The translations under genes and the position numbers were made by a program. A DNA stretch of 26,432 bases from Patescibacteria group bacterium (GTDB lineage: Bacteria > Patescibacteriota > Patescibacteriia > Magasanikbacterales > GWA2-37-8), in NCBI GenBank assembly GCA_038064745.1, contig JBBTSL010000045.1:1291-27722 (forward strand). The letters run 5' to 3'. Below the pieces are notes generated by a model that saw only the letters and a list, made by a program, of their open reading frames with translations, was not told the origin of the DNA and ran no database searches. Shown here in pieces: positions 78 through 24,266 of the stretch. The stretch's first letter is position 1, and every line of letters starts with the position of its first letter.

Positions 78-152
78 TCCGGGGTAGCTCAGCGGCAGAG
101 CGAAGGACTGTTAATCCTCAGGTCGCGGGTTCGATCCCCGCCCCCGGAGCCA
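78..152 (+). tRNA. tRNA-Asn (anticodon GTT)
   Basis: Acceptor TCCGGGG/CCCCGGA, D arm GCTC-AGCGGCA-GAGC, anticodon loop CT-GTT-AA (GTT at 110-112), T arm GCGGG-TTCGATC-CCCGC, discriminator G and encoded CCA (150-152). Confidence 0.97.
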
Positions 153-4523: not shown

Positions 4524-4729
4524 AGATTTGGTTACTCCTTATACCCACACACTACCGCGTCTGTCCCAGGTGCCTAGTCACGACCTGTAGGCAAGCTGTA
4601 GGTAACTAATTGATTAAAAAATGCCAATATTTGCTAGTATTAGGTCAGATTTTTCTACTTTTCCCGTCATGAACAAATATGTTGCTCCTGTGGTCATTTT
4701 CTGATAAAATTCGAGGGAATATTTTTCCT

Positions 4730-8200: not shown

Positions 8201-11200
8201 CCCCAATCAACTACTTCGGAAGATTGATGATGCTCTGCGTTCGCTTGCGGAACATCATTCCTTCCAGGAAACACAGGCGGTGATAAATGCTGTCATCGCT
8301 CTTCTTGGTGTTACGAGCGAATCTGACGGCTGGAGATTGTTCAGTGATTCCGCGGGAAAAATTCGCTCAAACGGACACTGGTTCATGCCAGCTGATGGTT
8401 ATGCTGACCGACGAGCAGTTTACGAGGTGGCTAAGGGAAATAATTGGAAGCTCGACTTTAAGGCATACTGGGTACAAAATACGAATAAGTCCGTCATTCA
8501 TTGGGTGACGGCGATCACGCCCAATTTCGAGGACGCTCCCTGGTTAGCGTCAGAAAATGTCGGCATTGATTTCGTTATTCCAGAAAAGGCTGATCGAGTT
8601 TTCGTTGTTTTAAGCAAGGAGCACGCTTTGCGTGTTATTGAGTTGCGTGATCACCTCTCTCCGACTGCTTCTGAGATTTTTTCAAAATGGACTCAGTCCT
8701 TTGATTTTTCCAACAAGGCACAGCTCCACCAAATACTTTGGGATAGCTTTAATTTTGAGGCAATTAATAAAGTCTTTTACAAGACAATTAGCTCATTCTT
8801 TACTGAGCTTAAGCAGCATCTCCTTTCAAAATCAAAAGACCTGTTTGACGATCATTCGGCGGCTTTATTTGTAAACCGTCTTATTGGTCGCATCATTTTC
8901 TGTTGGTTCATTGATAAAAAAGGAATTTTAAATACAGAAGTTAATTACTTTCAAACAAATGGCTTAACCGCGTCTGAACATTATCGCACAAAACTCGAAA
9001 CACTATTTTTTAGAATTCTTAACACGCCAGTTGACGAACGTGTCAGTGGACTGGATATAAAAACTCCATTTCTCAACGGAGGTTTATTTGAAGCAAAGAC
9101 TGGTGACCACGAAGGAGATCCTCGCGTTTCATTTCCGGCAGATTATTTTGACCGGCTTTACGAATTTCTTCGCCGCTATAACTTTACTACCGACGAATCC
9201 TCGAGTACGTTCCAGCAAGTAGCAATCGACCCTGAGATGCTCGGTCGTATTTTTGAAAACCTGCTTGCCGAGCAAATTGAAGAAACCGGCGAACAGGCTC
9301 GCAAGGCGAAGGGTGCATTCTACACCCCACGGGAGATCGTTGATTACATGTGTAAGGAGAGTCTACGAGAATATCTCCGATCTAGGGTTCCTGAAACGAC
9401 GGATCGTGACGAACAGCTCGCGAAGTTACTTGATAAAAAACCGCATGAGTTCCGGGATCAGCAACGGAATTATCGGGGAGACCTTAAACCGTATAAACAC
9501 GACATTCTCGAAGCCCTAGAAGAGCTTACGGTGCTCGACCCAGCTTGTGGATCAGGTGCTTTTCCAATGGGCATGCTCCAGCTTCTCCTGGAAACATACG
9601 ATCGCTTGGAGAGCGATTACGATCCCTACAAGAAAAAGTTAACGATCATCAAGAACAACATCTTTGGTGTTGATATTGAGCCAATGGCGGTAGAGATTGC
9701 CCGCCTCCGTGCTTGGCTTTCTATTATTGTTGACGAAGACGTCACCGATGGCCGAATTGAGCCTTTACCAAACCTTGATTTCAAATTTGTTTGTGCCAAC
9801 ACGCTGATTCCGTTAGATCACTCCGAAGGTCTGTATGACACATTGAATGTCGACCAATTAATTGAGATTCGAGATGAATATTTTCGAGCGAGAAAATATA
9901 CTCGAAAACAAGAATTAAGAGAAAAGTTTAGTCTTTTAATAAAAGGAAGAGGGATGAATGGGATGTTCGCATCCGAGAGAGAAAAACAGCTTAAGACATA
10001 TCAGCCATTCAACGCGGAAAATTCAGCACTATTTTTCGACTCGCGAGTAATGTTTGGAATGGTGGATGGTTTCAATATCGTGATTGGTAACCCGCCGTAT
10101 ATTAGTCATGATAAATTCCAATTGCCAGAAGAAGTGTTGAATGGATACCGTTCATACCAACCATTCGCCGATTTGTACTGTTACTTTTTTGAACTTGCCA
10201 TTCTTCTAACCCAAAAAAAACACGGCGTTGTTTCATTCATAACATCCAATTCCTACATCAAAGCCGAATACGGAAAGGGTTTGCGTAAACTATTATCGGA
10301 GACAAGCACTTTGATAAACTTGATCAATATTGATCAGTCTCAGGTTTTTGAGTCCGCAACTGTCAATACAGCTATCCTGATTAGTAAAAGCCAGTTGACT
10401 GATGCAGACGTGACTATATTCAATGCACCTTACGATAATAAAGATACCGACTTTAGGAAATACATTCAGACAAATTCGTTTTCAAAAAAGAGTAGCTACT
10501 TTACAGAAAGCCCATGGCTGCTAATTGGGGGCAAGACTGCAGATTTGATCGATAAAATCCGAATGAGTGGCAAGACTCTTGAGAAATTAAAGACAAAAAT
10601 TAGATTGGGTCTAGCCACTGGAGCAAACGAAGCTTTTGTATTAAGCGAGGAAGTAAAACAAAGGCTCATCGAGCAAGATCCTCGTAATGCTGAGGTTATT
10701 AAACCGGTCTTGAGAGGAAGAGATATATCAAGGTTTTCTTATCGTCAAAAGTTATACATATTATTGACGAAGAATGGCATCGATGTCCCCAATGATTACC
10801 CATTTGTTTATGAATACCTCAAAAGTTTCGGGGAGGCTTTCATGAACCGTGGAGCGAAGGGACAGCATTGGACTAATCTCCGTGCATGTGCATTTTTTGA
10901 TGATTTCAAAAAAGATAAAATCGTTTGGATTGAGCTGACAACGAAAAGTAAGTTTGCAATGTGCAGAGAGGAAATCTACTTATTAAATTCCTGTTACTTC
11001 ATGCTTACGCCCGATGGATATAATTCATCCGCACTATTAGGAGTACTTAATTCCAAGTTGATTCAGTTCTACATGGACGTGGTTTCCCAAACCAGTGGAA
11101 TGGGAACCAATCGATGGATAAACGTAGTCGTGAAAGATTTTCCGGTTCCGGATCTTTCTAATACTAAAGAGGTAATAGATCTCGCACAGTTAGTTGACGA

Positions 11201-11333
11201 GATAACTAATTTAAAACATGCAGATCCAGAAGCTAATACGAATCTTCTCGAGTCACAAGTGAATAGAATGGTATACGAATTGTATCGTTTATCCGATGAA
11301 GAGATTATGTTAATAGAAGGTAACCAAAATTAG
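8181..11333 (+). CDS. Eco57I/TaqI-like N6-adenine DNA methyltransferase with C-terminal target recognition domain (type IIG-like)
   Basis: FLNGGLF, IDPEMLGRIFENLL, GAFYTPREIV, LDPACGSGAF (SAM binding), GNPPYI (catalytic), TaqI_C-like KIVWIEL...F region; overlaps the helicase stop by 20 nt. Confidence 0.93.
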   Translation: MPEQTNNPNQLLRKIDDALRSLAEHHSFQETQAVINAVIALLGVTSESDGWRLFSDSAGKIRSNGHWFMPADGYADRRAVYEVAKGNNWKLDFKAYWVQNTNKSVIHWVTAITPNFEDAPWLASENVGIDFVIPEKADRVFVVLSKEHALRVIELRDHLSPTASEIFSKWTQSFDFSNKAQLHQILWDSFNFEAINKVFYKTISSFFTELKQHLLSKSKDLFDDHSAALFVNRLIGRIIFCWFIDKKGILNTEVNYFQTNGLTASEHYRTKLETLFFRILNTPVDERVSGLDIKTPFLNGGLFEAKTGDHEGDPRVSFPADYFDRLYEFLRRYNFTTDESSSTFQQVAIDPEMLGRIFENLLAEQIEETGEQARKAKGAFYTPREIVDYMCKESLREYLRSRVPETTDRDEQLAKLLDKKPHEFRDQQRNYRGDLKPYKHDILEALEELTVLDPACGSGAFPMGMLQLLLETYDRLESDYDPYKKKLTIIKNNIFGVDIEPMAVEIARLRAWLSIIVDEDVTDGRIEPLPNLDFKFVCANTLIPLDHSEGLYDTLNVDQLIEIRDEYFRARKYTRKQELREKFSLLIKGRGMNGMFASEREKQLKTYQPFNAENSALFFDSRVMFGMVDGFNIVIGNPPYISHDKFQLPEEVLNGYRSYQPFADLYCYFFELAILLTQKKHGVVSFITSNSYIKAEYGKGLRKLLSETSTLINLINIDQSQVFESATVNTAILISKSQLTDADVTIFNAPYDNKDTDFRKYIQTNSFSKKSSYFTESPWLLIGGKTADLIDKIRMSGKTLEKLKTKIRLGLATGANEAFVLSEEVKQRLIEQDPRNAEVIKPVLRGRDISRFSYRQKLYILLTKNGIDVPNDYPFVYEYLKSFGEAFMNRGAKGQHWTNLRACAFFDDFKKDKIVWIELTTKSKFAMCREEIYLLNSCYFMLTPDGYNSSALLGVLNSKLIQFYMDVVSQTSGMGTNRWINVVVKDFPVPDLSNTKEVIDLAQLVDEITNLKHADPEANTNLLESQVNRMVYELYRLSDEEIMLIEGNQN

Positions 11334-11359: not shown

Positions 11360-12826
11360 GTGCTAACAAAATCTAACTTCATGCAATTCCTTCGCTGTAC
11401 GTGCGAGCTTTGGCTTGCAAAACAGCGACCGGATTTGTTTCCTCCCACCGATCCCGCGCTTCAGCGAATTTTCGACGAGGGAAACGTTGTTGATCGTTGG
11501 GCGCAGAAGTTGTTTCCAGACGCGGTGAACGTCGATGGATTCGGGATGCCTGCGGCGATCAATACCAAGAAAGCCATTGCGATTGGGGCGACGGCGTTGC
11601 TCCAGCCGACGTTCATGACGAGCAAGATTTCCTGCCGCTCTGACATTCTCACAAAGAATGCCGACGGCTCGTGGAGCATCTACGAAGTAAAAAGCTCAAC
11701 GGACGTAAAGGAAGAGCACGTCATAGATGTGGCGTTTCAGCGCATCTGCCTTGAGGAGTCCGGAATACGCGTCGCACAAACGTTTCTTGTTCACGTCAAC
11801 AATCAATACGTCAGACATGGTGAGATTAATCCTCGCGAGCTTTTTGCCATCAAAGACATTACGCACGAAGTAGAGACGGTCATGCCGATAGTAAAGAAAG
11901 AGATCCCTCGTGCGCTTTCGGTACTTGAGTGGGATAAGACACCGAGCCTTACGCACGTTTCTTCTTGTGTGAATCCTGCCGAGTGCGAATTCCTCATATG
12001 CTATTTCTCAGAGCTGAAAGACGATCACATCTATTCGATTGCAACCTCGCTTTCCAAGGAAAAGCTCACGGCATTCCTTGAGCGAGGACTTTTGAAGCCC
12101 GAGCAGATTCCCGCTGACATTATGGCTGAGTTGCCCGATATCAAACTTCCGGGAGTGCAAACCGAACCAACCCTTTCCGTCGACAAAGAAACGATAAAGT
12201 CTGAACTCGAAAGCCTCCAGTACCCGCTCTACTTTTTGGACTACGAAACATTCTTTCCCGCCGTACCAATTTTTGACGGCTACCGACCCTATCAGCAAAT
12301 GGTGTTCCAGTATTCTGTTCACGTTATACGCAAACCAAACGCGGAACCAGAGCATTATGAATACCTTACGGAGGAAATGATTGATCCTGCTCATGACATC
12401 GCCACCTCGCTCAAAAACCACATTGGGGATACAGGAAGCGTCATCGTTTGGAATGCTCGCTTTGAGGCATCACGCAACGCGGAAATCGGCGAGCATCTCC
12501 CGGAGTTTGCTGACTTCATGGCGAATATCAACGACCGCATGTACGATCTCATGATGGTTGTGAAGAAGGGCTATTACGTTGATTCCCGATTCGGTGGCAG
12601 TGCATCGATCAAGAAGGTATTGCCAGTCATGTGTCCCGAACTTTCCTATAACGATCTTGCGATTCACGAGGGCGGAACAGCGTCTGCAAGTTGGACAACG
12701 CTCACCGATCCCATGACCTCACCTGAAGCAAAGGAACTGCTCAAAAAGGATATGCTCGCGTATTGCGGACTCGATACCTACGCAATGATTGCGATCTATC
12801 GCGAATTTCTTGAATCGATTAAGTAA
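11360..12826 (+). CDS. DUF2779-domain protein (RecB/Cas4-like nuclease plus RNase H-like domain)
   Basis: TKSNF...C...LWL start, SDIL...IYEVKSST (D...ExK), YFLDYETF, VIVWNARFE, SIKKVLP...LSY, YCGLDT. GTG start. Confidence 0.85.
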   Translation: MLTKSNFMQFLRCTCELWLAKQRPDLFPPTDPALQRIFDEGNVVDRWAQKLFPDAVNVDGFGMPAAINTKKAIAIGATALLQPTFMTSKISCRSDILTKNADGSWSIYEVKSSTDVKEEHVIDVAFQRICLEESGIRVAQTFLVHVNNQYVRHGEINPRELFAIKDITHEVETVMPIVKKEIPRALSVLEWDKTPSLTHVSSCVNPAECEFLICYFSELKDDHIYSIATSLSKEKLTAFLERGLLKPEQIPADIMAELPDIKLPGVQTEPTLSVDKETIKSELESLQYPLYFLDYETFFPAVPIFDGYRPYQQMVFQYSVHVIRKPNAEPEHYEYLTEEMIDPAHDIATSLKNHIGDTGSVIVWNARFEASRNAEIGEHLPEFADFMANINDRMYDLMMVVKKGYYVDSRFGGSASIKKVLPVMCPELSYNDLAIHEGGTASASWTTLTDPMTSPEAKELLKKDMLAYCGLDTYAMIAIYREFLESIK

Positions 12827-12862
12827 CTAGCGATTTCCGGATGGATCAATGGCAGTAATTAT

Positions 12863-13807
12863 ATGTCGTACTTTAGCGAAGTAGCATCTGTTTTTAGTGA
12901 CGATTTTCCGTTGGTGACAACAAATGAGGAATTGGCTTTGCAAATAAACGCGAAAACTGATTGCGATTTATCATATGTTTCGTCAGGATGCATTGAGGAA
13001 AGAAAGAGAAAAATAGATGCACTCTGGCCTGCATTTAAGCCGTATGCTGATAAAGAATTTTTGAAAGGTATTCGGGTCAACTTTGATCAAAGGTGTTGGG
13101 AGATGTATTTGGCGAATATTTTTACCGATCACTTTGACATTTCATCAAGTGTAAAAAATCATGGTCCAGATTATGTTCTAGATGACAGGATCTGTGTTGA
13201 AGCGATTGCGTGTAAGCGAGGAGAAAGTCCGAACGGTGTTCCTGAACTTTACATAACAAACCCCACTGAAGATAAGCTTTTGTTTGTAGATACGATTCCA
13301 GAGGACAAAATGATTCTCAGGATCACCCATGCAATTCACGAGAAGTACGCGCAGTACAGTCGGTGGCTATCGAGTCTTACATCAGTAAACGAAAAGTCAC
13401 CATTGGTGATCGCGGTAAACACAGGCGGTTTGGGATTTCCTAGCCCTGGAGATTTACCGCTAGTTTTGAAACCTTTATTCGGAATCGGTCACAGACAGTT
13501 CCGAAAGGAAGCAGGACGTTTAGTAGATAGTGGATGGAGCGGTCGTCCCACTATCAGTAAAAATAATGGTACGCAGATCGATGCATGCTTCTTTGAAGAT
13601 CAAAAATACGCAGCCATAAGTGCCGTTTTGTTTTCAGAGACGCGAACCTTAGATCACTCATCGCATATCGGAGAGGATTGTATCGTGGTTCATAATCCGA
13701 ATGCGAAAAATCCAATTGATCAAAAGGTTTTCTCTTTTCTCGACCAATGGATTGAAGCAGGAGAAAGTATCGTACATCGACCAGCTGAAATTAATCAAAC
13801 TTTTTAG
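12863..13807 (+). CDS. hypothetical protein, restriction-endonuclease-like fold
   Basis: FDQRCWEMYL, GPDY...CVEAIA (PD...E), ISAVLFS...HNPNAKNP; 314 aa; 36 nt after DUF2779. Confidence 0.6.
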   Translation: MSYFSEVASVFSDDFPLVTTNEELALQINAKTDCDLSYVSSGCIEERKRKIDALWPAFKPYADKEFLKGIRVNFDQRCWEMYLANIFTDHFDISSSVKNHGPDYVLDDRICVEAIACKRGESPNGVPELYITNPTEDKLLFVDTIPEDKMILRITHAIHEKYAQYSRWLSSLTSVNEKSPLVIAVNTGGLGFPSPGDLPLVLKPLFGIGHRQFRKEAGRLVDSGWSGRPTISKNNGTQIDACFFEDQKYAAISAVLFSETRTLDHSSHIGEDCIVVHNPNAKNPIDQKVFSFLDQWIEAGESIVHRPAEINQTF

Positions 13808-14252
13808 GCAGTGAGATTCCACCTTGTACCTTCGGCATTGTTCCTACCATGAAGTGATTCAGTGTTGTCTTTATCGCTCGGTGGTTGCCGAGGATGACGA
13901 CGATATTTTTCTGATCGAGAAGCTTTGCGTCGATAATCATCTGCACGCGCTGATTTGAGGCGAGGAAAAATGGATTTGTCCGATCTATCGAGCCGAGTTC
14001 GCACATCTCCTCGCTATTCGGCACCGTGCACCACTGTAATTTTGTTTTGCTGAATATCGCTGCGTAGTTTAATCGGCGATTCGCGGACGTGATAAATGCG
14101 AGAAATCCGCCGTTGCAACGAAACAGTGTAGTCGTCACAACTGCCTCGGTCGGTACGTCGAGCACCTTCGCGATTTCGTCATATTCTCCCTCTGCCATGA
14201 CGGGTAAGTCGATCACGTCGAGGTCTATTTTGAGTTCGAGTTCGTTATTCAT
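13791..14252 (-). CDS. YbaK/ProX (tRNA-editing) fold protein, degenerate
   Basis: EIAKVLDVPTEAVVTTTLF...RRLNY...EEM..LG....NPF...QMIIDAKLL....VVILG matches YbaK spacing. ATG 14252 preferred over 14273. Confidence 0.6.
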   Translation of the reverse strand: MNNELELKIDLDVIDLPVMAEGEYDEIAKVLDVPTEAVVTTTLFRCNGGFLAFITSANRRLNYAAIFSKTKLQWCTVPNSEEMCELGSIDRTNPFFLASNQRVQMIIDAKLLDQKNIVVILGNHRAIKTTLNHFMVGTMPKVQGGISLPKKFD

Positions 14253-14359
14253 ACACGACAAGTAATGCCACATGGGTTGGGGTTGTCTAGTCTTAAAACC
14301 CTTGAAAAGCTCAATAAGTACAAGGATAAGGAAGGAAGAGAAGGAGTTGGTAACCAGAC

Positions 14360-14570: not shown

Positions 14571-15104
14571 ATGTCGCAAACGACAAATACTTCGGTGACG
14601 AAGAAGCAACCCATGAGTTGGATGAAGAAGTTCGTGATTGGTTTATCAATCTTTCTTGTCGGATCGCTAGGATTCCTCGTCATCATTACTCCAAAAGTAC
14701 CGGAACTCACCCCGGAACAGAAGACCGTAATCGAAGCGGAAAAGTTAGCAACGAACGCCCTACTTGATTCCTTCATCGTATCCACGAAGATCGAAAATAA
14801 TTCCATCGGCATTCCAGAGCTTCACATGGTGGTGAAGAACACTTCAGAGAAGACCATGGACGGTATCGAGATCACGGCAAGTTTTTACAACAACTTTGAC
14901 GAACCTGCTGGTGAATGGGGTGACCCGAACGATAACTCTCTCCTCGTAAGATCACAGGACGTGATTGCGCCGGGTGACTCGGAACCGATGTATTGGAACC
15001 TCACCGCCTTCAGTGGAGCGACGAAGGTTACGAAGGCGAAAGTAATTCGCGTGCATTACACGGACGGCACAGAAGTCACAAGGCAATACCCCTCAGAGGA
15101 TTGA
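14571..15104 (+). CDS. single-pass membrane protein with FxLYD/DUF3426-like Ig-fold domain
   Basis: N-terminal TM segment (FVIGLSIFLVGSLGFLVII), then VVKNTSEKTMDGIEITASFYN...IAPGDS pattern. Confidence 0.65.
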   Translation: MSQTTNTSVTKKQPMSWMKKFVIGLSIFLVGSLGFLVIITPKVPELTPEQKTVIEAEKLATNALLDSFIVSTKIENNSIGIPELHMVVKNTSEKTMDGIEITASFYNNFDEPAGEWGDPNDNSLLVRSQDVIAPGDSEPMYWNLTAFSGATKVTKAKVIRVHYTDGTEVTRQYPSED

Positions 15105-15126: not shown

Positions 15127-15666
15127 ATGCCAATCCTCGACTCAGTACCCATTCCAGAACGTAACATGCTTTTTCGACGGTGGTCTGGCGTGCCAATCAA
15201 TCACACGTTCGGAAATAAAGGTTTGATTGATATCGACGGCAAACCGATGTTCGCCGAGCTGGCTATCGCGGAAACCATGAAACGAGACGGCTATGAAACG
15301 CGATGGGTTGAGGTGTACGGACGAGGAAATAAAGAACCGATTTATCTCACGCAGTGGAAAGATGCGCCATACAAAGATCAGATAAACATGCCAATTCAGG
15401 AACGATGGATTACGGATACTTTGGCTGGTATTGCGAGGCTGAATAACAACTCATACAAAGGTTGTTGGGATGTTCTTGCGTGGAAGGACGGCAAACTATT
15501 ATTCGTCGAGTCGAAACGCAAAAAGCGCGATTCTGTGCGAGGATCACAGATCGCTTGGCTCGAGGCAGGTTTAAAATACGGGCTCACTCCTGACAACTTT
15601 CTAATCCTACAGTGGGACTTCGAGGACGCTCGACCCCGGCTATCACTTTCTCAATCTCACACTTGA
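15127..15666 (+). CDS. VRR-NUC domain nuclease
   Basis: GCWDVLAWKDGKLLFVESKRKKRDSVRGSQIAWL matches the VRR-NUC PD-(D/E)xK pattern. Confidence 0.8.
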   Translation: MPILDSVPIPERNMLFRRWSGVPINHTFGNKGLIDIDGKPMFAELAIAETMKRDGYETRWVEVYGRGNKEPIYLTQWKDAPYKDQINMPIQERWITDTLAGIARLNNNSYKGCWDVLAWKDGKLLFVESKRKKRDSVRGSQIAWLEAGLKYGLTPDNFLILQWDFEDARPRLSLSQSHT

Positions 15667-17094
15667 TCTGTTGAAGACCTTTTCAAACCCGTAGGTGACC
15701 GCAACCACGAAGGCATCCATCAGATCATCGTGCTTTTCGAATCCGAACCCAACAATCTGGGTGATAAGTTCCTTTGCACCTGTATTTGGGAAGAGAATAT
15801 TCCCATCACGGATTCTTGGAGAGATCAAGTTCAGTCGCGTACGCTTATCAACGTTTCCGACGCTGAATCCGTCAGCCTTGCATCCTGTCTTTTGGAGTGC
15901 TTCAATCAGGACTCGTTGATACGTAACGTCTTCCACCGCAATAATGACGTAATATTGCTCGTTGTATTCGTTATACAGATGTACGAGTGTGTCGATTTGT
16001 TCTGTGAATCCCATCCGTTTATTGATGATTGGATTCGTGACAAGGACCTGAGGTTTTTCACGATTACCCATAACAATTACCGGAACCATTGCCGTGTAGT
16101 CCGCCGTTTCCTTGTCTGATACCGCGAGGTCAACGCCAATAATCATGGCTGGTCTGTCCGATCTCGGAGCCACGTACAGTAATTCGTCCGGATATCGCTG
16201 TATCCAATCCAACTGAACGACTCGCTCAAGGTCGGAGACAATCTTGAGTAGATATTCCATCGACCACGCGACTTCATCAACGATCTTTTTTCTGAGTTCT
16301 TCGATGTCCTCCTGTGTTTTGTATTTTCCAGGCCATAACGGTTTTCCTTCCTTATCGAGGAGAGGATATTCCACCACTTTTCCTGTTCGTTCATTTTTCT
16401 CAATCTCTTCCTTGATCCGACTGATGAGCGAATCTTCGTGGAGCAAGTTTCCAACGACTACGATGTTCGTCTTTGTGTCGCCAACTGGAATGAGATCGCG
16501 GGTAAACCACTGGTAGGTTTTTTGACGTGACTCGCGCGTCTTTACCGATGCCAAATCTTCGATGTCGTCGCAGATAATGAGATCGGGACGATTCGCTCCG
16601 TGGCGCAATCCGCGTACGCTTTGGTCAAGTGATATGGCAGTTATCCTCGCGCCGAACTTCGGTATAACGAGTGATCCCGAATTCCACTCCTCATCGTGTT
16701 CAGTGAATGGTCCGAGATCGTCACGGAGCAAGGCATTATTTTCCATTTCACGCCGAATGTTTTGTAGATGGAACCGCGCCTGTGCTTGTGTTTGGCAAAC
16801 GATCAGCACGAACTTCTTTTGCTGTATTCCGAGGATCGACCACAGGGCGAGCGACATCGTGCAAATCGTGGACTTTGCTGAGCCACGGAACGCCAAAACG
16901 ACGAGCATTGCGTAATCCTGCTCGGTCAGGCTCAGGAGTTCTTTCTGGAATGGCGCGGTCTCGCAAGTGATGTATTCCGAGAAGTAGACGTGGAAGAAGT
17001 AGAAATGACTTTTTGCCGTCAGCCCCGTTCGGAATCTTCTGTCCGTTCGCACCCGCCCCATGATGTTATTCAGACTCTCCGTTTCCGTTTTCAT
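15643..17094 (-). CDS. terL: phage terminase large subunit
   Basis: Walker A AFRGSAKST, Walker B IICDDIED, nuclease acidic residues IGVDLA, AVED, HDDLMDA. ATG 17094 preferred; 17121 possible. Confidence 0.9.
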   Translation of the reverse strand: MKTETESLNNIMGRVRTDRRFRTGLTAKSHFYFFHVYFSEYITCETAPFQKELLSLTEQDYAMLVVLAFRGSAKSTICTMSLALWSILGIQQKKFVLIVCQTQAQARFHLQNIRREMENNALLRDDLGPFTEHDEEWNSGSLVIPKFGARITAISLDQSVRGLRHGANRPDLIICDDIEDLASVKTRESRQKTYQWFTRDLIPVGDTKTNIVVVGNLLHEDSLISRIKEEIEKNERTGKVVEYPLLDKEGKPLWPGKYKTQEDIEELRKKIVDEVAWSMEYLLKIVSDLERVVQLDWIQRYPDELLYVAPRSDRPAMIIGVDLAVSDKETADYTAMVPVIVMGNREKPQVLVTNPIINKRMGFTEQIDTLVHLYNEYNEQYYVIIAVEDVTYQRVLIEALQKTGCKADGFSVGNVDKRTRLNLISPRIRDGNILFPNTGAKELITQIVGFGFEKHDDLMDAFVVAVTYGFEKVFNRSSVRLRK

Positions 17095-17515
17095 AGGGAG
17101 CAATCTCACTTGAAATAACATTTCCGAGGGTCAGCGCACGACCAATCGCTTCTTCCTCTTCCTGCGTAAGCGGACGATCAACGCGAACGCTGGCGTTCAG
17201 GTCAACGCGCGTTCCGTAGGCGCGGTGGCGGTGCTTGAGCCAAAATGTAATCGCGCCGAGGTTGCCGTTTCGAATCATGCTGATCATGTGACTTTCCGCC
17301 ATGTCGCTCACGAGCGAATTGCCCTCGATGATCGCCTGTTGTGACTGCACATGGAAATCATCGTCGTCTTTGAGCCAGCGATAATATGTTGCGCGACCGA
17401 TACCGACCTTTTCGCATGCGACCTGCACAATAGGCGTACGTTTCAATTGTTCAACCATCTCGCCCTTCTTGTCGTCCTGGCGTTCGACGACCTTACTTGG
17501 TACTTGTTTTTTCAT
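17066..17515 (-). CDS. HTH protein, probable terminase small subunit
   Basis: IVQVACEKVGIGRATYYRW HTH followed by helices ending AITFWLKHR; overlaps the 5' end of terL. ATG 17515 (TTG 17527 possible). Confidence 0.75.
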   Translation of the reverse strand: MKKQVPSKVVERQDDKKGEMVEQLKRTPIVQVACEKVGIGRATYYRWLKDDDDFHVQSQQAIIEGNSLVSDMAESHMISMIRNGNLGAITFWLKHRHRAYGTRVDLNASVRVDRPLTQEEEEAIGRALTLGNVISSEIAPYENGNGESE

Positions 17516-18299
17516 ATGCGTTTTCAATCAGTTTTGCTTTGATTCCTGTTTTGTCCTCGAACCGTTTGATAATCGTTGCAATGTATTCGGGTTCGATCTC
17601 GATCCCAAAACACCGTCGTCGCGTATCTTCGCAAGCTATGAGCGTTGATCCGCTTCCAAGGAAGCCGTCATATACAACATCATGGATACTTGAACTATTC
17701 ATAATGAGTCGTCGCAAAAGTCCCGTCGGTTTGACCGTAGGGTGCATCTTGGAACTCGAGGGCTTCGGATAGATCAGGATCGTCTTGTCTTTGGATTTCA
17801 TGAACTTGTGCGTGCCATACCATCCGTATGCAATTAGCTCGTGCTGAGGGAGGTAGTCCATGCGACCAATGACCGCGTGCGACTTCGCCCAAATAAGAAG
17901 CTGGGTAAACTTGAACCCCGCATCGAGGATGCCTTCGCGCATGGCAAAGATCATCTTGTCCGAGTTGAAGATGTAGTACGCGTTCTTCGGTGTAAGATGA
18001 TGTTTAATCGGCTCAAGCCAATCCTTCGTAAACTTCCGATACTCTTCGTCGGACTGCGCGTGGTCGTTCAGAATAATCTTTTCTTTGCCTAGCTTCTGCT
18101 TGAACCCAGCCTTACTTTCCACATACGCGCACCCGTATGGGGGATCATTTACAAGTAGGCTGGCACGATCTTTTCCGAAGAGCTTATCTACGAGTTTTGT
18201 GTCTCGTGAATCCCCGTAGGCAAGCTTATGGTTTCCAAGGACAAAAATGTCCCCGAGGTTAATTGATGCGCTTTGCTTTTTGGTTGGTGAGTTTTTCAT
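17493..18299 (-). CDS. N4-C/N6-A DNA methyltransferase (beta class)
   Basis: NDPPYG precedes HPTVKP and YDGFLGSGST (motif order IV then I). Confidence 0.92.
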   Translation of the reverse strand: MKNSPTKKQSASINLGDIFVLGNHKLAYGDSRDTKLVDKLFGKDRASLLVNDPPYGCAYVESKAGFKQKLGKEKIILNDHAQSDEEYRKFTKDWLEPIKHHLTPKNAYYIFNSDKMIFAMREGILDAGFKFTQLLIWAKSHAVIGRMDYLPQHELIAYGWYGTHKFMKSKDKTILIYPKPSSSKMHPTVKPTGLLRRLIMNSSSIHDVVYDGFLGSGSTLIACEDTRRRCFGIEIEPEYIATIIKRFEDKTGIKAKLIENAYEKTSTK

Positions 18300-19542
18300 A
18301 TCGTTGTATAATTACGTCACAGAAGACTGGATCTTTTTCAATTGTGAATGATTTGCGTTTCATCTGCTCGCACGCCGCCATGGTGCTACCCGATCCTCCG
18401 AAGAGGTCGAGGACGATGTCTCCGGGCTTCGTACAGCGTCTGAGCGGCTTCTCGTGAAGCGATACGGGTTTTTCGGTTGGATGCGTATAGTCTTGGCCGT
18501 TGAGTCGTTTGGCGAGCCAGATATCGAACAGATCCACAATGTCATCGATCGTACGGTTACCTGGCTGAATATCGCGGTTGAGAATCTCGGTAAGGTTCAT
18601 CACCTTGTCGCAGAGATACGGCGAACCGATGACCCCATACACGCAAGGCTCATACGCCTTGTTGAACGCGATCTGAGGTGTCATGTTGAAATTGTTCTTC
18701 ACCCATAGGCACACGCGCTTATTTTTTATTCCAGTTTCCTCGTAAAGGGATTGCAGAAGTCCGATGGAAAGTTGGTCTACCCACATAAAGAAGTGGGCAT
18801 CCGGTTTAGCCACCGCCTTCGCGTTTTCAATGCACGTTTTCAGGAACACGCGGTATTCCACTGGCGACTTATTGTCATCGACCTTGCCGCCATACTTACC
18901 TTTGGTCGAAATACCCTTGGAGTAGTCGAGCGAAATGTTGTAGGGAAAATCCGAGTAACACATGTCTACCTTGTGTTTGCCCATGATATGAGACACGGCT
19001 TTTGGGTCTGTGGAATCACCGCACAATAAAATGTGATCACCGAGCTGGAACATCTCCCCGAGTTTTGTCTTCGGCTTCTTGATCGCTGCCGCGGCTTTCT
19101 CCGAATCGAAGTCGTCTTCTTCGACGGAGAGCGTGTCATCCCATATGTGGCTGAGATCAGTTTCATCGAACCCTACCTCGATCAGCATCTCCATGTTGAA
19201 TTCCTTCAGGAGATCCCAATCCCATTCGCCAGTATTTCTGTTTAACCTGACGTTTAACTCCTTCTCTCTTTCAAGATCCGGAATGTTCACGTAAACGACT
19301 GGCACCTGCGTAAAGCCAAGAGACTTGGCGACGGATAATCTGAAGTTCCCCCCGATTACTATGTTCTTCCGCTTTGGCGCGGAGTTCACAATCAGGGGGT
19401 CAAGCATGCCAAATCGCTTGATACTGTCCTTGAGCTTTTCCTCCGCGATCACATCGTGTTTTCTCGGATTGAAGCTTGGCGTGGTAAGTGCATCTATTGC
19501 GACGTACTCCACTTTGATTGAACCTTTGGATATTTCTGACAT
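18259..19542 (-). CDS. ParB-like N-terminal domain fused to N4/N6 DNA methyltransferase
   Basis: NPRK...FGMLDPLIVN...IGGNFR...LNRNTGEWD (ParB-N); SDFPYN, HPTEKP, LDLFGGSGST (MTase). Confidence 0.92.
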   Translation of the reverse strand: MSEISKGSIKVEYVAIDALTTPSFNPRKHDVIAEEKLKDSIKRFGMLDPLIVNSAPKRKNIVIGGNFRLSVAKSLGFTQVPVVYVNIPDLEREKELNVRLNRNTGEWDWDLLKEFNMEMLIEVGFDETDLSHIWDDTLSVEEDDFDSEKAAAAIKKPKTKLGEMFQLGDHILLCGDSTDPKAVSHIMGKHKVDMCYSDFPYNISLDYSKGISTKGKYGGKVDDNKSPVEYRVFLKTCIENAKAVAKPDAHFFMWVDQLSIGLLQSLYEETGIKNKRVCLWVKNNFNMTPQIAFNKAYEPCVYGVIGSPYLCDKVMNLTEILNRDIQPGNRTIDDIVDLFDIWLAKRLNGQDYTHPTEKPVSLHEKPLRRCTKPGDIVLDLFGGSGSTMAACEQMKRKSFTIEKDPVFCDVIIQRYEKLTNQKAKRIN

Positions 19543-19572: not shown

Positions 19573-19603
19573 AAAAATCCCAACCGATCAGGTTAGGATT
19601 TTT
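19573..19603 (-). terminator. intrinsic terminator upstream of the ParB-MTase operon
   Basis: On the - strand AAAAAUCCUAACC-UGAUC-GGUUGGGAUUUUUUU: fully paired with one U.G, followed by a 7-U tract. Confidence 0.65.
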
Positions 19604-19844: not shown

Positions 19845-20063
19845 TTACTTGCCGAAACCGCGAATTGTGCCGAGCAAGTCTTCGACAGACGCATTCACGT
19901 CGTCAACGACCTTATCGACCGATTGTTCTTTCTTGAGTGCGATACTTTTCCCGCACCCAGGACAAACCAGTGACTTTTCCTCCCTCACGTCATTGAGAGA
20001 GAAAGAGATTGGTGCCTCGCATCCCGGGCATGCTGTTTTAATTTGCTCTTGCCCGATATCCAT
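19845..20063 (-). CDS. small Zn-ribbon protein (CPGC...CPGC)
   Basis: 72 aa, two CxxC pairs, C-terminal amphipathic helix; near-consensus promoter directly upstream. Confidence 0.75.
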   Translation of the reverse strand: MDIGQEQIKTACPGCEAPISFSLNDVREEKSLVCPGCGKSIALKKEQSVDKVVDDVNASVEDLLGTIRGFGK

Positions 20064-20090: not shown

Positions 20091-20119
20091 ATTTTACCGA
20101 GGGCGTTTATGGCTGTCAA
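20091..20119 (-). promoter_or_regulatory. leftward sigma70 promoter
   Basis: On the - strand TTGACA (20119-20114), 17-nt spacer, TAAAAT (20096-20091). Confidence 0.75.
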
Positions 20120-20142
20120 GTCCGTCAAGTTTTGCACTTGAC
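20115..20142. promoter_or_regulatory. candidate repressor operator (GTCAAGT half-sites)
   Basis: GTCAAGT at 20115-21 and 20124-30; inverted ACTTGAC at 20136-42, forming a perfect IR with a 5-nt spacer; overlaps both -35 boxes. Confidence 0.55.
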
Positions 20143-20165
20143 TATTATGTACTATCCTGTACTAT
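20138..20165 (+). promoter_or_regulatory. rightward promoter for the repressor operon
   Basis: TTGACT (20138-43), 16-nt spacer, TACTAT (20160-65); ATG follows at 20177. Confidence 0.55.
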
Positions 20166-20176
20166 TATTTTCAAAT

Positions 20177-20827
20177 ATGCATGAAATCCAACAAAAAATC
20201 TTGGAGCTGGCAAAGAAATATGACCTTGGAAGCTTAAGTTTGCGGAAGATCGGCGAGCTTATTGGTCAACCCCATCCACAGCAGGTGAAGCATCACTTCG
20301 AGAAGCTTGTTTCGGCAGGTCTTCTGAAGGCAAGCTTTGACCGAAAGATCGTTAAAAAAGTTGATGTGACTAGGAAAACAGCGGATGGACTTCTGTTGAT
20401 CCCTATTTTTGGCAGTGCAAACGCTGGTCCAGCGACTATTTTTGCAGATGAAACCCTTCAGGGGTACCTGCATGTATCAAAGTCCCTTCTTCCCAAGACT
20501 CGCGGCAAAGTATTCGCGGTGCGCGTGAGCGGAAACTCAATGAATGACGCATCGCTTAACGGCAAAACGATCGACGACGGCGACTTCGCGATTGTCGATT
20601 CTGGTCAGACCGACCCGCCAAGCGGCAAGTACGTGCTGTCAGTCATTGGTGACGTTGCGAACATCAAACGTCTGGTTAAGGACGAGGAAAACGAGCAGAT
20701 TATCCTCGCCTCGGACTCGAAGGAAAAATCGTACTCGCCGATTTACATTCACGAGGACGAAAAAGAGACGTTCCGAATCAGTGGTGTGGTTGTGGAGGTG
20801 ATGAAAGATCCAAAATTAAAAAAGTAA
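20177..20827 (+). CDS. LexA/CI-like repressor (wHTH plus S24 peptidase)
   Basis: N-terminal wHTH, Ala-Gly cleavage site (FGSANAG), catalytic Ser (VSGNSM) and Lys (NIKRL). ATG 20177 preferred over 20132. Confidence 0.9.
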   Translation: MHEIQQKILELAKKYDLGSLSLRKIGELIGQPHPQQVKHHFEKLVSAGLLKASFDRKIVKKVDVTRKTADGLLLIPIFGSANAGPATIFADETLQGYLHVSKSLLPKTRGKVFAVRVSGNSMNDASLNGKTIDDGDFAIVDSGQTDPPSGKYVLSVIGDVANIKRLVKDEENEQIILASDSKEKSYSPIYIHEDEKETFRISGVVVEVMKDPKLKK

Positions 20828-20834
20828 AGTTCAT

Positions 20835-21896
20835 ATGGCTTACGAAATTGACTATCTCCCAGTGGGAGAAGGTGAAAGGGGCGGAGATGCGATCGCATTG
20901 CGTTTTGGAAACCTTGCGGGTTCGCGTGAAGAGCAGACCGTAATTGTGATTGATGGTGGGACTAAGGACTCTGGCACCGCCTTGGTTGAACACATCAAGC
21001 TCTATTACGGAGGAACAGACTTTGTTGACTTTGTAATCTCTACACATCCAGATGCAGATCATGCCTCAGGGCTGTGCGTAGTTTTGGAGCAGATGCGAGT
21101 CGGAACGCTTGTAATGCACAAGCCTTGGGAACATGCCGAAGATATCAAGAGTCTTTTTGTTAACGGCAGAATTACCGCTTCTGGTCTTGAAGATAAACTG
21201 GAAAAGTCGCTTCAGCACGCAAGCGATCTCGAATCGCTCGCCAAGGGGAAAAACATCACGGTAGTTGAACCGTTTCAAGGCGTTGCCGGAATGGACGGAG
21301 CGATTCATGTGCTGGGTCCATCAATGGAATACTATCAATCCTTGCTGCCGCATTTTCGTGGTACACCACAACCAAAAGATGCATTGGGTATTCTTGGAGC
21401 GATAAGAAAAGCAGCGGAAGATATCGTGAATAGTATCCGTGATAGCCTTGACATTGACCTGTTGAACAACGACGAAGATACGACTTCCGCCGAAAATAAT
21501 ACGAGTACTGTGATTCTCTTTAACCTGGACGGTCACAAGATGCTATTTACAGGAGATGCAGGAAAAACCGCCCTTCATAACGCATCCGATTATGCTGAGA
21601 CATCGGGAATCGCGTTAACCGACCTGCATTTTCTTGACGTTCCTCATCATGGAAGCAAGAGAAATCTTAGCAGCAGCCTCCTAAAGAGGATCAAAGCGCA
21701 GGTCGCTTACGTTTCTGTTCCAAAAGAATCAACTAAGCATCCTGCAAAGAAAGTCACCAACGCGCTTAAAAAAATCGGCGCGTCAGTCTATACGACAAAG
21801 GGAAAAACTATTCGATACAGTAGTGCCGATGCTCCGGCGCGGGCAGGATGGAGCGCAATTCAGGAAGAACCGTTCCACGAATACGTCGAGGAATAG
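20835..21896 (+). CDS. ComEC/Rec2-like metallo-beta-lactamase-fold hydrolase
   Basis: GGDAI, VIDGG, STHPDADHASG, LFTGDAG, DVPHHGS; no membrane domain. Confidence 0.88.
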   Translation: MAYEIDYLPVGEGERGGDAIALRFGNLAGSREEQTVIVIDGGTKDSGTALVEHIKLYYGGTDFVDFVISTHPDADHASGLCVVLEQMRVGTLVMHKPWEHAEDIKSLFVNGRITASGLEDKLEKSLQHASDLESLAKGKNITVVEPFQGVAGMDGAIHVLGPSMEYYQSLLPHFRGTPQPKDALGILGAIRKAAEDIVNSIRDSLDIDLLNNDEDTTSAENNTSTVILFNLDGHKMLFTGDAGKTALHNASDYAETSGIALTDLHFLDVPHHGSKRNLSSSLLKRIKAQVAYVSVPKESTKHPAKKVTNALKKIGASVYTTKGKTIRYSSADAPARAGWSAIQEEPFHEYVEE

Positions 21897-21898
21897 AT

Positions 21899-22591
21899 AT
21901 GAAACCAGATGCATATACACTCGTCGCGCGAATATTTCCAGGCATCCTCGGTGTCATTCCGTTTCTTGTCCTATATTTTCGCGCTTTGCGACCATTAATC
22001 GGAGATCTTGTTGATAGTATCTTCGGACTTCAATTCGTTTCTGACGTAACGATCCCCCTCGTTCTTCTGTACCTATTCGTGCAGTTGGCAAAGTACTTAT
22101 CAAAGGAGCTGTACCAGAAGAAAATGTTTAACAACGGTCTGAACATGCCGACGACAAATTTCTTGTTGCATCTCAACGACTTTTTTACAAGGGATTTCAC
22201 GAAAAAAGTACATGAAAAAATCTTGTCGGACTTCAACATTCAAATTCCAAGTATTGAAGCCGAACAATCTGACTCCGTTCATTCCCGAAAGACTATTAGC
22301 GAGGCGGTATCCTGCATCTGCGGAAAAATGAAAAAAGGGCATCTCATCGGTCAGCACAATACAGAATATGGTTTCTGGAGGAATCTCGCCGGAGGATCAA
22401 TTATTTCGGTGATTGCATCGGTAGTGAGCGTTATCGTTTTTGCGTGGCTCTACCCTGATGGGTCAGCTTTGCGTACGTCGATCGCTCTTGGAATCATATA
22501 CTCTATCCATCTGATTTTCGCCAAAAAAATGATAGTTCATTCTGGAGAAGAGTACGCAAAAATACTCATCCGCGAATATGTTGTGAGCTAG
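21899..22591 (+). CDS. 4-TM membrane protein of unknown function
   Basis: Two pairs of hydrophobic helices flanking a soluble domain ending HNTEYGFWRNL; starts 2 nt after the MBL stop. Confidence 0.8.
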   Translation: MKPDAYTLVARIFPGILGVIPFLVLYFRALRPLIGDLVDSIFGLQFVSDVTIPLVLLYLFVQLAKYLSKELYQKKMFNNGLNMPTTNFLLHLNDFFTRDFTKKVHEKILSDFNIQIPSIEAEQSDSVHSRKTISEAVSCICGKMKKGHLIGQHNTEYGFWRNLAGGSIISVIASVVSVIVFAWLYPDGSALRTSIALGIIYSIHLIFAKKMIVHSGEEYAKILIREYVVS

Positions 22592-22612
22592 TTTTGGTTT
22601 TTCCTTATCCCT

Positions 22613-22939
22613 ATGCCAACAAAACAATCAACCGTAGACTACATTCTTGATCAGTTAGCTGATCTTCCTGGCATCGAAGCCAAGAAAATGTTTGGCGAGT
22701 ACGCCTTGTACACGTCCGGTAAAGTTGTTGGGCTGATCTGCGACGATACGCTCTTCATTAAGATTACGGATGCTGGAAAGCAGTTTGTTGGCGATGACTA
22801 CAAGGAGGGTTCTGCGTACCCAGGGGCAAAGGCATCAATGGAAATACACGGAGACTTGTTGGAAAACCGCGAATGGCTTTCGAAACTTGTCGCCATCACT
22901 GAAAAAAATCTACCCACGCCAAAACCAAAGAAGAAATAG
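22613..22939 (+). CDS. TfoX/Sxy N-terminal domain protein
   Basis: VDYILDQL...AKKMFGEYALY..GKVVGLICDDTLFIK. Confidence 0.85.
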   Translation: MPTKQSTVDYILDQLADLPGIEAKKMFGEYALYTSGKVVGLICDDTLFIKITDAGKQFVGDDYKEGSAYPGAKASMEIHGDLLENREWLSKLVAITEKNLPTPKPKKK

Positions 22940-22946
22940 AATCGGT

Positions 22947-24266
22947 ATGCAAGAAAAAATGCAAAAGCCAATTGCATACTGTCTTTACGCGCGTAAAAGC
23001 AGCGAGTCGGAGGAGCGTCAATCTCTTTCCATTGATTCCCAAATCAAAGAAATGCAGAAGCTCGCCGAGCGCGAAGGCTTAAACATCAAGGAGATAAAAC
23101 GTGAGAGTCGTTCCGCAAAGTCGCGGGGAGACAGACCGATTTTCAACGAGCTGATCAACGACGTTCGTTTTGGTAAATTTGGTGGTATTCTCACATGGGC
23201 AACTGACCGCCTCAGTCGTAATGCTGGAGATTTAGGCGCACTGGTCGATCTGATGGATGCGGGAAAACTTATTGATATTCGCACGTTCAACCAGCGTTTC
23301 ACGAATTCGCCCAACGAGAAGTTTTTGCTCATGATTCTTGGCAGTCAGGCGAAACTAGAGAACGACAACCGAAGCGTAAACGTAAAGCGCGGTATTCGTT
23401 CTCGCGTCCAAGCTGGATTATGGCCTGGTCCTGCGCCTATTGGCTATCTCAACCAAAACCGTACGGATAAAAGATGCGAAGTGATCGTCGATATCGAGCG
23501 AGCGCCTACCATCAAACAAATGTTTGAGAAGGTGGCTAATAATCGCATGAGTACGAGGAATATTTACCAGTGGTTGAAGGACATCGGATTTCGTTCACAT
23601 CACGGAAAAGTTTTCGCCCACAGTAGCGTACAAAGAACGCTGAATAATCCATTTTACTACGGGCGGTTCGAGCATCCTAAGAAAAGCGGTAAGTGGCATA
23701 CGGGCAAACACGAGCCGATCATCACCAAGGCGTTGTTTCAAAAAGTTCAGGATCGACTTCATCGTATTCAGACCAAGCGAAGCGTGAAGGAGTTTTCTTT
23801 TGTCCGTCTTTTTACCTGTGGTCTTTGCGGATCTGGCATCGTTGCTGAGGACAAGGTGAAGAAGCTAAGTGACGGAACGATAGCTCATTACATTTATTAC
23901 GGGTGCAGTCGTGGTCGGGATCGATTCTGCAAGAATAGCTATATTCGCGAGGAGGAGCTGATCAAGGAGCTGGTTGGAATCATCGACACGGCAGAAATTG
24001 ATGAACTTGGCATTCGTTATAAATTCGACGAAGAGGTCACGCGGTACGGCAAGTTTTTAAATCACGTTCTAGGCAAACCCACAGATCTCAAAGCGGAAGA
24101 GATCGAGCTAAATATTCGGGCATACGCCAAGTACGTCTTAATGGACGGTTCCAAAACCGAAAAGCGCGAACTCCTCGGACATTTGCGGAGCCGCCTCGTT
24201 TATACGCACAAGAAGTTTCGTCTTTTACCTTCCGAGCAACAGGAAGAGGAATCAGTCGTCCAGTAA
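22947..24266 (+). CDS. large serine recombinase 2 (short form, paralogue of recombinase 1)
   Basis: YCLYARKSS, DRLSRN, NPFYYG...GKHEPIIT, CGLC...YYGC...C. ATG 22947 (or 22959); the 22770 start overlaps tfoX. Confidence 0.93.
   Translation: MQEKMQKPIAYCLYARKSSESEERQSLSIDSQIKEMQKLAEREGLNIKEIKRESRSAKSRGDRPIFNELINDVRFGKFGGILTWATDRLSRNAGDLGALVDLMDAGKLIDIRTFNQRFTNSPNEKFLLMILGSQAKLENDNRSVNVKRGIRSRVQAGLWPGPAPIGYLNQNRTDKRCEVIVDIERAPTIKQMFEKVANNRMSTRNIYQWLKDIGFRSHHGKVFAHSSVQRTLNNPFYYGRFEHPKKSGKWHTGKHEPIITKALFQKVQDRLHRIQTKRSVKEFSFVRLFTCGLCGSGIVAEDKVKKLSDGTIAHYIYYGCSRGRDRFCKNSYIREEELIKELVGIIDTAEIDELGIRYKFDEEVTRYGKFLNHVLGKPTDLKAEEIELNIRAYAKYVLMDGSKTEKRELLGHLRSRLVYTHKKFRLLPSEQQEEESVVQ

Follow-up and report, generated by a model that had tools for sequence, protein, structure and literature searches.

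A TerS–TerL packaging cassette without portal or capsid genes in Patescibacteria, possibly the core of a helper-dependent satellite-like island

A stretch of 26,432 nucleotides from a Patescibacteria group bacterium (contig C45, positions 1291-27722; referred to as the window) carries an operon that ends with the genes of a small (TerS) and a large (TerL) terminase subunit. The genome bin of this contig comprises 0.94 Mb in 179 contigs and is 98% complete, and identical DNA is present in groundwater assemblies from Hainich (well H41). Four minus-strand genes, encoding a ParB_N/DNA methyltransferase (MTase) fusion, a second MTase, TerS and TerL, make up the gene set referred to here as the cassette (Table 1). 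Because consecutive genes overlap by 23-56 nt, they are regarded as one operon with TerL as its last gene. A reading of the locus made from the sequence alone (the sequence-only reading) had described TerL in this way, running into a convergent gene, and this holds: the TerL stop codon TGA (15645-15643) is located inside a convergent gene for 179 aa, at its 3' end, and the two genes overlap by 24 bp. An alternative TerL start at 17094, which is used by public gene calls, gives a protein of 483 aa. Beyond TerL, the window contains no portal-sized co-directional gene.

Table 1. Features of the window (positions count from its first letter; the bases of the cargo-slot rows between 4679 and 15104 are Pfam and PADLOC)
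Feature	Coordinates	Strand	Basis or remark
tRNA-Asn(GTT), left limit of composite island	78..152	+	ARAGORN, Rfam
Large serine recombinase A, far end of cargo slot, co-directional with TerL	3192..4523	-	Pfam, phrog_95
PLD(HKD)-SNF2 helicase	4679..8200
Type IIG restriction-modification-like methylase	8181..11333
DUF2779/Cas4 nuclease	11360..12826
PD-T7-5-like	12863..13807
YbaK-like	13791..14273
177-aa unknown protein	14571..15104
VRR-NUC-like PD-(D/E)xK nuclease, 179 aa, first gene of cargo slot, convergent with TerL	15127..15666	+	ESM-Atlas look-alikes
TerL, large terminase (ATPase and RNaseH-like nuclease)	15643..17121	-	Final gene of operon; ATG start
TerS-like small terminase (N-terminal helix-turn-helix, C-terminal TerL-binding helix)	17066..17515	-	ATG; TTG at 17527 possible; PF13022, PHROG TerS
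N6/N4 DNA methyltransferase, optional second core gene	17493..18299	-	PF01555 2.6e-27, phrog_498
ParB_N / N6-N4 DNA methyltransferase fusion, first gene of operon	18259..19542	-	PF02195 and PF01555
Terminator-like hairpin (13 pairs and T run), between zinc-finger-like open reading frame and ParB-methyltransferase gene	19573..19603	-	Consensus scan, putative
72-aa open reading frame, faint zinc-finger match, first after leftward promoter	19845..20063	-	List of open reading frames; called as gene in public contigs
Divergent promoter-like pair	20091..20165	minus TTGACA-17-TAAAAT (11/12 matches), plus TTGACT-16-TACTAT	Consensus scan
S24 (LexA/CI-like) autocleaving repressor, divergent from terminase operon	20132..20827	+	PF00717 2.8e-18, phrog_4 repressor
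Accessory module: metallo-beta-lactamase-fold protein, 247-aa unknown protein, TfoX_N protein	20835..22939	+	Pfam; TfoX_N from precomputed Pfam of public contigs
Large serine recombinase B, upstream, divergent orientation	22770..24266	+	Resolvase, Recombinase and Zn_ribbon_recom; phrog_95 integrase

TerL of the window has no match in Pfam or in a single-sequence search of the PDB, and is identifiable solely via PHROGs, a family profile and a fold search. It matches the PHROG family phrog_38 'terminase large subunit' at 5e-76, and the closest TerL of a cultured phage is only about 25% identical. In the family profile, the Walker A/B region aligns to the ATPase of T7 gp19. The AlphaFold2 model has a pLDDT of 84, and its top Foldseek matches are full-length terminases covering both domains, namely those of PhiV-1/T7-like phages (8dgc_E, 1.9e-16), HK97 (6z6d, 5e-13), D6E and Sf6. 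The nuclease fold resembles the nuclease domains of G20c, P74-26 and SPP1, and PF17289 was found in relatives. Among solved structures, the T7-type terminase (gp19; PhiV-1 TerL, PDB 4bij / 8dgc) is the best match by profile and fold and shares the Walker A form F-R-G-x-G/A-K-S, although the identity over the fold alignment is only about 13%; T7-like phages also lack a ParB-MTase and a temperate lifestyle.

The Walker motifs and acidic nuclease residues, which the sequence-only reading had reported as kept, are all in place. Walker A reads F-R-G-S-A-K83-S-T, Walker B consists of D185 and D186 with E188, and the nuclease residues D331, E397 and D465/D466/D469 are present. The Walker A lysine, the Walker B aspartates, D331, D465, D466 and D469 are intact in 78/78 cassette TerLs, and the position of E397 holds E in 74 and D in 4 of them. 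Both K83 and D185/D186 (with E188) are invariant in 19/19 phage relatives too. Judged from sequence and model, the protein has the ATPase, the RNaseH-like nuclease, the two-domain fold and the cognate TerS, encoded just upstream, of a large terminase; the portal ring on which such enzymes dock would have to come from a hypothetical helper.

TerS is recognised by HTH_Tnp_1_2 (PF13022, 5e-7) and by PHROG TerS families at about 1e-6, and the cassette TerS profile matches TerS of the portal-bearing phage L107 at 4e-6 (L numbers designate individual loci). The modelled TerS–TerL complex scores 0.63, compared with 0.00 for the best control; the mark applied to such models was reached by 58 of 80 solved complexes and by 2 of 110 mismatched pairs. 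In the model, residues 113-132 of TerS, a C-terminal helix, face residues 17-60 and 130-134 in the N-terminal region of TerL. Contact between the TerS C-terminus and the TerL N-terminus is the arrangement of known terminases. The model supports binding of TerS to TerL.

Related loci were collected from IMG/VR (343 loci), and about 165 related loci were examined in total. IMG/VR loci with a TerL identity of at least 40% are cassettes, with the pair L107/L108 (44%) being real phages, as are L123-L142 (35-38%). In these uncultured sister phages (L107, L123-L142), the genes follow the order ParB-MTase, in part a second MTase, TerS, TerL, portal, protease and major capsid protein (MCP), identical to that of the cassette up to TerL. 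A portal protein of about 740 aa (phrog_2662/phrog_12) is encoded 100-300 nt after TerL, followed by protease/scaffold and an HK97-type capsid protein (phrog_10). The sister-phage TerLs are 35-44% identical to the cassette TerL and have the same catalytic residues, and the TerS of L107 is homologous to that of the cassette. The portal gene also directly follows terL in three cultured outgroup phages, so the premise that terL is normally followed by a portal gene is correct for sister and outgroup phages alike. In contrast, a portal gene never follows the cassette TerL. The TerLs also differ in their tails after the HDD motif, which are short and conserved in the sister phages, whereas those of the cassettes comprise 25-75 residues and are hypervariable in sequence.

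A maximum-likelihood tree of 103 TerLs separates 78 portal-less sequences (and two of unknown state) from 19 portal-linked ones (and four of unknown state) along one branch, with a support of 100 in the Shimodaira–Hasegawa-like approximate likelihood-ratio test (SH-aLRT). A single state change suffices for the portal trait on this tree. When Mu-like phage TerLs are used as the root, the portal-less sequences again group in one clade (support 100), next to two lineages that are portal-linked. As the trees come from 'quick' searches and the sequences were sampled by motif matching, their deeper structure is not to be over-read. TerL is under strong purifying selection: the ratio of non-synonymous to synonymous substitution rates (dN/dS) amounts to 0.12 in the comparison with the relative of 82% identity and to 0.01-0.09 between more closely related cassettes. 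The ratios of the other core genes are 0.02 for TerS, 0.06 for the MTase and 0.10 for ParB-MTase. A clade of portal-less TerLs under purifying selection, for which the sequence-only reading had proposed to search, is thus what was found. Since the portal-less TerLs form one clade beside portal-linked lineages, the pattern fits a single ancestral loss of the morphogenesis block, and removal of everything from portal to lysis from a sister-type phage gives exactly the cassette layout. Gene order and phylogeny suggest, with evenly balanced confidence, that the family would descend from a temperate tailed phage after a single loss of the whole portal-to-lysis block.

Several TerL variants were observed in the family. 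Two tandem, diverged terL genes replace or follow terS-terL in L048, L049, L065, L068-L071 and L116, with the paralogues falling into separate subclades. Some TerL cluster representatives (P0121, P0123, P0124, P0127 and P0198) are about 700 aa long and have a C-terminal extension of 200-240 residues without a Pfam match, and representative P0249 carries a LAGLIDADG intein-like insert. Many cassette TerL tails end in a recurrent [IL][LM]-x-M-x-[FW] motif (e.g., L053, L068-L071, L089 and L093), which may be a docking peptide; the tail of the window copy (15643-15740) is without it.

On chromosomes of Patescibacteria, also known as the candidate phyla radiation (CPR), there are thousands of TerL homologues with about 50% identity. 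The nearest relatives, with TerL identities of 82%, 74% and about 50%, are all portal-less cassettes, and three of three distant long contigs carry a cassette of the same kind that ends without a portal gene. An even sample of 300 genomes spread across the phylum contained the TerL in 33 (about 11% of the sampled Patescibacteria species), with a full-length open frame in 28; none of the four sampled genomes from the window's own family carries it. All 20 genomes with 9-kb flanks show ParB-MTase, in part a second MTase, TerS, TerL and then 0-12 variable genes, after which a co-directional large serine recombinase follows in 18 (L058 and L062 have none within the flank). The remaining, shorter loci of the even sample are likewise of the cassette type.

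The GTDB representatives hold at least 570 loci, of which the best 80 were inspected and 79 had a callable TerL open reading frame (ORF). ParB-MTase lies upstream of TerS–TerL in 73 of these 79, a portal homologue occurs in none, and a recombinase directly follows TerL in 18 of 78. About 57 IMG/VR contigs show the same gene order. The second MTase gene is present in roughly one third to one half of the family members. In minimal copies of about 5-7 kb, TerL is immediately followed by the recombinase, and the genes between TerL and recombinase differ from copy to copy. Recombinase A of the window, co-directional with TerL at the distal end of the cargo slot, occupies the canonical position of the portal-less cassette family. 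The conserved core includes no replication gene and no membrane or export component. The family is specific to Patescibacteria. Many contigs of small metagenome-assembled genomes (L159, L162-L164, L168 and others) are titled 'uncultured Gammaproteobacteria bacterium', while the titles of a few read 'Bacillota', 'Bacteroidota' or 'Burkholderiaceae'. Such titles probably reflect mislabelling or mis-binning of the records, not genuine hosts beyond the CPR.

A genome-wide search for portal and capsid genes, which the sequence-only reading had proposed, agrees with the picture at the locus. No match was found in the 0.94-Mb bin for PF04860, PF05133, PF05065 or PF12236, the last of which (T7-type portal) is uninformative, as its control set was also silent. 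Of 30 carrier genomes, several of which are closed, 29 lack PF04860, PF05133 and PF05065 throughout, and the single exception has an unrelated prophage on a separate contig. The sister-phage portal likewise has a homologue in none of the cassette loci examined. It could be argued that the cassette belongs to a complete virus whose portal and capsid proteins are too divergent for profiles and are encoded by small genes without annotation or in another part of the genome; for many ORFs nearby, no family was matched, and the PF12236 search was without a positive control. This explanation is very improbable, as the minimal copies leave no room for virion genes between TerL and recombinase, and the genes in that interval are not conserved between copies. 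Moreover, the sister portal (phrog_2662/12) and MCP (phrog_10) are easily recognised, yet no cassette locus contains a homologue.

The bin holds a second tRNA-Asn(GTT) on contig C101 (C101:3647-3719), which is about 78% identical to the window copy. CCA is encoded only by the window tRNA-Asn, and the C101 copy retains the neighbour gene found beside tRNA-Asn in a genome of the same family. Because the bin holds two different tRNA-Asn genes, contig C45 may be mis-binned, or the window tRNA may be island-associated. A mis-binned contig would weaken the claim that the cassette's own genome is free of portal genes; the conclusions at the level of the family are unaffected.

The site just 3' of terL is of particular interest, since the sequence-only reading had named a scenario in which the nearest relatives are complete prophages and a deletion or insertion breakpoint falls at about 15640. 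This scenario fails: the nearest relatives (TerL identities of 82%, 74% and about 50%) have portal-less cassettes without exception, and the junction is conserved in diverged relatives. Metagenome contigs from wastewater and sludge bridge the junction between TerL and the VRR-NUC-like gene with 96% and 88% identity. In a sludge relative, a gene-sized stretch (12802-13790) that corresponds to the PD-T7-5-like gene is swapped for 24 other bases, a clean single-gene difference. Because these diverged contigs keep the junction, yet one lacks exactly the PD-T7-5-like gene, the junction is regarded as old and the cargo as replaced gene by gene. The site just 3' of terL is a family-wide recombination and cargo junction, i.e., an ancient breakpoint that is not particular to this genome.

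An intact or recently defective prophage does not fit, as relatives down to about 40% TerL identity have no portal, capsid or tail genes and form one clade. The related idea of a decaying prophage, in which a recent event near 15640 took the portal and head genes from this genome only, could draw on the variability of the site after terL throughout the family and on a nonsense single-nucleotide polymorphism (SNP) in TerL in one replicate assembly. It is extremely improbable, and the least credible of the explanations considered: besides the portal-less clade, the dN/dS values of 0.01-0.12, the intact catalytic residues, the junction shared with diverged relatives from other habitats, and the loci with a recombinase directly after TerL all speak against it.

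The slot between TerL and recombinase A includes nuclease genes and a defence set with restriction-modification-like and SNF2 members. The convergent 179-aa gene has no Pfam match even at E=10; its ESM-Atlas look-alikes are VRR_NUC clusters (score 0.96), and a PD-(D/E)xK-like motif is seen by eye. The label 'VRR-NUC' is plausible from the sequence, if weakly tested. The gene is shared only with the closest relative, L012, and a DUF4352 gene takes its place in L011. PADLOC matches in the remaining cargo are HKD+Snf2 C3a139, type IIG, Cas4 and PD-T7-5. Homologues of the PLD-SNF2, IIG and DUF2779 genes adjoin the cassette in many other loci. The PLD(HKD)-SNF2, type IIG-like methylase and DUF2779/Cas4 genes recur jointly or pairwise near it in genomes that are not related to each other (L043, L045, L056, L058, L059, L072, L077, L106 and L112). 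This recurrence suggests that the three form a multi-gene defence system, for which PADLOC has only the candidate C3a139 'HKD+Snf2'.

The constant company of defence cargo, with the cassette adjoining restriction-modification (RM) systems, raises the question of whether the cassette is itself a defence system that does not move the island. TerS and TerL would then cut phage DNA or concatemers, or occupy phage portals, and the methylases would mark self. Methylases combined with an ATPase-nuclease are formally RM-like, both catalytic centres of TerL are kept, and satellites are described to protect their hosts by disturbing the packaging of helpers (PMC9618062). This possibility is nevertheless rather unlikely. 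PADLOC 2.0 matches no family for TerL or TerS and only generic type II MTase models for the methylases, and the same ParB-MTase/TerS/TerL order serves packaging in bona fide phages. Tight association with a serine recombinase and a repressor switch, combined with a patchy distribution, is typical of a self-mobile element, and pure defence gives no reason for the retention of a specific TerS whose TerL-binding helix is conserved. Interference and self-transfer are, furthermore, not mutually exclusive.

The wider surroundings of the cassette indicate mobility. In longer public contigs, the chromosomal genes for BipA and an ABC transporter lie to the left of tRNA-Asn. To the right of the window, at least 10 kb of further mobile DNA (L151:1-10000) contain a fourth recombinase and two Rep-initiator-like genes, and no structural genes. 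Because mobile DNA continues for at least 10 kb rightward, the cassette is considered part of a composite mobile island at tRNA-Asn that spans at least 36 kb. The composite region contains four genes for large serine recombinases, three of them in the window (recombinases A and B, and a third at 24856-26424). Two small units beyond the window each consist of a Rep-initiator-like gene, a small gene and a serine recombinase. A scan of the whole window against Rfam (E<=0.1) returned tRNA-Asn alone. Further signs of mobility are the patchy distribution, the position of the island next to a tRNA gene, the differing cargo among close relatives and the divergent repressor.

The repressor gene is transcribed away from the operon. 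A palindrome with a 7-bp stem at 20124-20142 is flanked by both promoter-like sites, and together they may form a putative repressor-controlled switch. An S24 repressor is found by BLAST upstream of the cassette in 22 of the 79 GTDB loci, and also in L047, L051 and L053. In the accessory module, the metallo-beta-lactamase-fold and 247-aa genes accompany the cassette again in L053 and L102, and the TfoX_N-domain gene (22613-22939) adjoins recombinase B; in other phyla, TfoX regulates competence.

In its way of working, the element would be most like a phage-inducible chromosomal island (PICI) or a phage-inducible chromosomal minimalist island (PICMI). PICIs, including the Staphylococcus aureus pathogenicity islands (SaPIs), PICMIs and the virion-encapsidated integrative mobile elements (VEIMEs) of marine bacteria share with the cassette family that they are integrative, phage-derived and tRNA-adjacent, have no virion genes, and carry a recombinase, TerS and accessory or defence cargo. 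They also carry a repressor, and the S24 gene of the window is a candidate for such a master repressor. The integration features of the window, recombinases A and B and an island abutting tRNA-Asn, correspond to those of PICIs. In PICIs, PICMIs and VEIMEs, TerS is the only terminase subunit encoded, or cos is used, and the TerL is that of the helper (PMC9618062). The cassette family differs in that every copy encodes its own TerL, so reliance on the helper's enzyme is not among its features; dependence on helper capsids is presumed to be shared. Further differences are the one or two DNA methylases, which are fused to a ParB_N domain or linked with one, the recombinase, which is of the large serine type in place of the usual tyrosine integrase, and the confinement of the family to Patescibacteria. 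No primase or replicase belongs to the cassette core, which thus lacks the replication module of a PICI; Rep-initiator-like small genes occur only in the mini-elements beyond the window.

Capsid-forming PICIs (cf-PICIs) resemble the cassette family in being satellites with their own TerS and TerL. According to a preprint (bioRxiv 10.1101/2022.09.08.507074), cf-PICIs additionally have genes for portal, major capsid, protease and head-tail connector proteins, so that they steal only tails. The cassette locus, in contrast, has no portal or capsid gene, and the same is true of the whole genome in 29 of 30 carriers, so the cassette falls outside the definition of a cf-PICI.

The sequence-only reading had offered three functions for the portal-less terminase, namely the hijacking of a helper's procapsids, interference with phage packaging and a repurposed enzyme. 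The context favours hijacking, because the serine recombinase, the repressor switch, the methylases, the cargo slot and a phage ancestry with the same gene order come together. As a proposal with about an even chance of being right, TerS–TerL would serve as the packaging core of an integrative mobile element, by which this island and the defence genes in its cargo slot enter helper-phage procapsids. Packaging into capsids would be the simplest explanation, because an intact and selected terminase with its TerS is combined with methylases that would pre-protect double-stranded DNA, a recombinase and a patchy, mobile-like distribution. The constant linkage of methylase and terminase fits a transfer as double-stranded DNA inside particles.

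After the loss of the morphogenesis genes, the island would have retained a LexA/CI-type repressor switch, the ParB-methylase, the methylase, TerS, TerL and a large serine recombinase, with a cargo slot where the deletion had taken place. The operon might be turned on by infection with a compatible helper or by stress cleavage of the S24 repressor. The methylases would mark the island DNA, and TerS would bind the island's own pac site and recruit TerL via its C-terminal helix. TerL would then cut the DNA, presumably dock on the helper portal and pump the island DNA, cargo first, into helper procapsids. In this manner the island could spread while stealing helper capsids, and the serine recombinase would integrate it in a new cell.

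Several observations weigh against such a helper-dependent island. PICIs need a replication gene, whereas the conserved core contains none. A sister-clade prophage was found in none of the 29 TerL neighbourhoods read in the 300 sampled Patescibacteria genomes, and no helper is known. No satellite is known that has a TerL but no portal, and the helper-dependent reading does not account for the need of a TerL besides TerS. The hypervariable part of TerL is the C-terminal tail, the usual region of portal contact, which could reflect either adaptation to many portals or relaxed constraint. The repeat search yielded no convincing direct repeats as att sites; their absence is expected for serine recombinases. 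None of 80 IMG/VR contigs showed terminal repeats or circularity, and no excision or circle joints were found in public assembled contigs that hold the element. Finally, the nonsense SNP in TerL occurs in one replicate assembly of the same groundwater population, at 5x coverage. At this place (L150:20465, TerL codon near 362, about 16010 in the window), two terL SNPs lie 17 bp apart, the first of which creates the stop; they reflect a genuine knock-out of terL or else a mistake in assembly or sequencing.

Some of these observations can also be read as signs of DNA processing independent of capsids, in which TerS and TerL excise or linearise the island DNA and translocate it without a virion, with transfer via competence uptake in the CPR, vesicles or epibiont contact. 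The carrier genomes are missing capsid genes, the phylum sample contains no helper prophage, the accessory module of the window copy includes the TfoX_N gene, and the TerL tails are hypervariable. Known TerL motors, however, need a portal ring both to assemble and to work, and the arginine and Walker residues on which an oligomeric motor depends show precisely the conservation seen in the portal-linked relatives. Methylation in the donor would be of little import for single-strand uptake, and the core has no conserved membrane or export component. Capsid-independent processing is therefore considered unlikely, slightly more so than the defence function. The same low probability is assigned to a broader form, a phylum-wide class of elements in which a headless TerS–TerL motor without a capsid of its own, and perhaps without any, pumps the excised or linearised island and its defence cargo to another cell or into the medium for uptake by competent CPR neighbours, or makes any infecting phage with a compatible portal transducing directly from the integrated state.

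A description of TerL-bearing, capsid-less islands in the CPR was not found in the open-access literature. If true, the headless motor would represent a new type of horizontal transfer and, for the first time, a viral packaging motor used outside a virion-encoding genome. A satellite with a TerL and no portal raises the question of how a foreign TerL gains access to the helper portal, and the fast-evolving C-terminal tails offer a route. The family also bears on the detection of viruses, as hundreds of IMG/VR 'viral contigs' are such cassettes and pipelines are misled by them. Patescibacteria make up a large share of bacterial diversity, and their phages, satellites and gene flow are barely known. 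Present in roughly one species in nine, and combining a complete terminase with swappable defence cargo and a serine recombinase, these islands may be a main vehicle for the exchange of defence genes among such tiny genomes.

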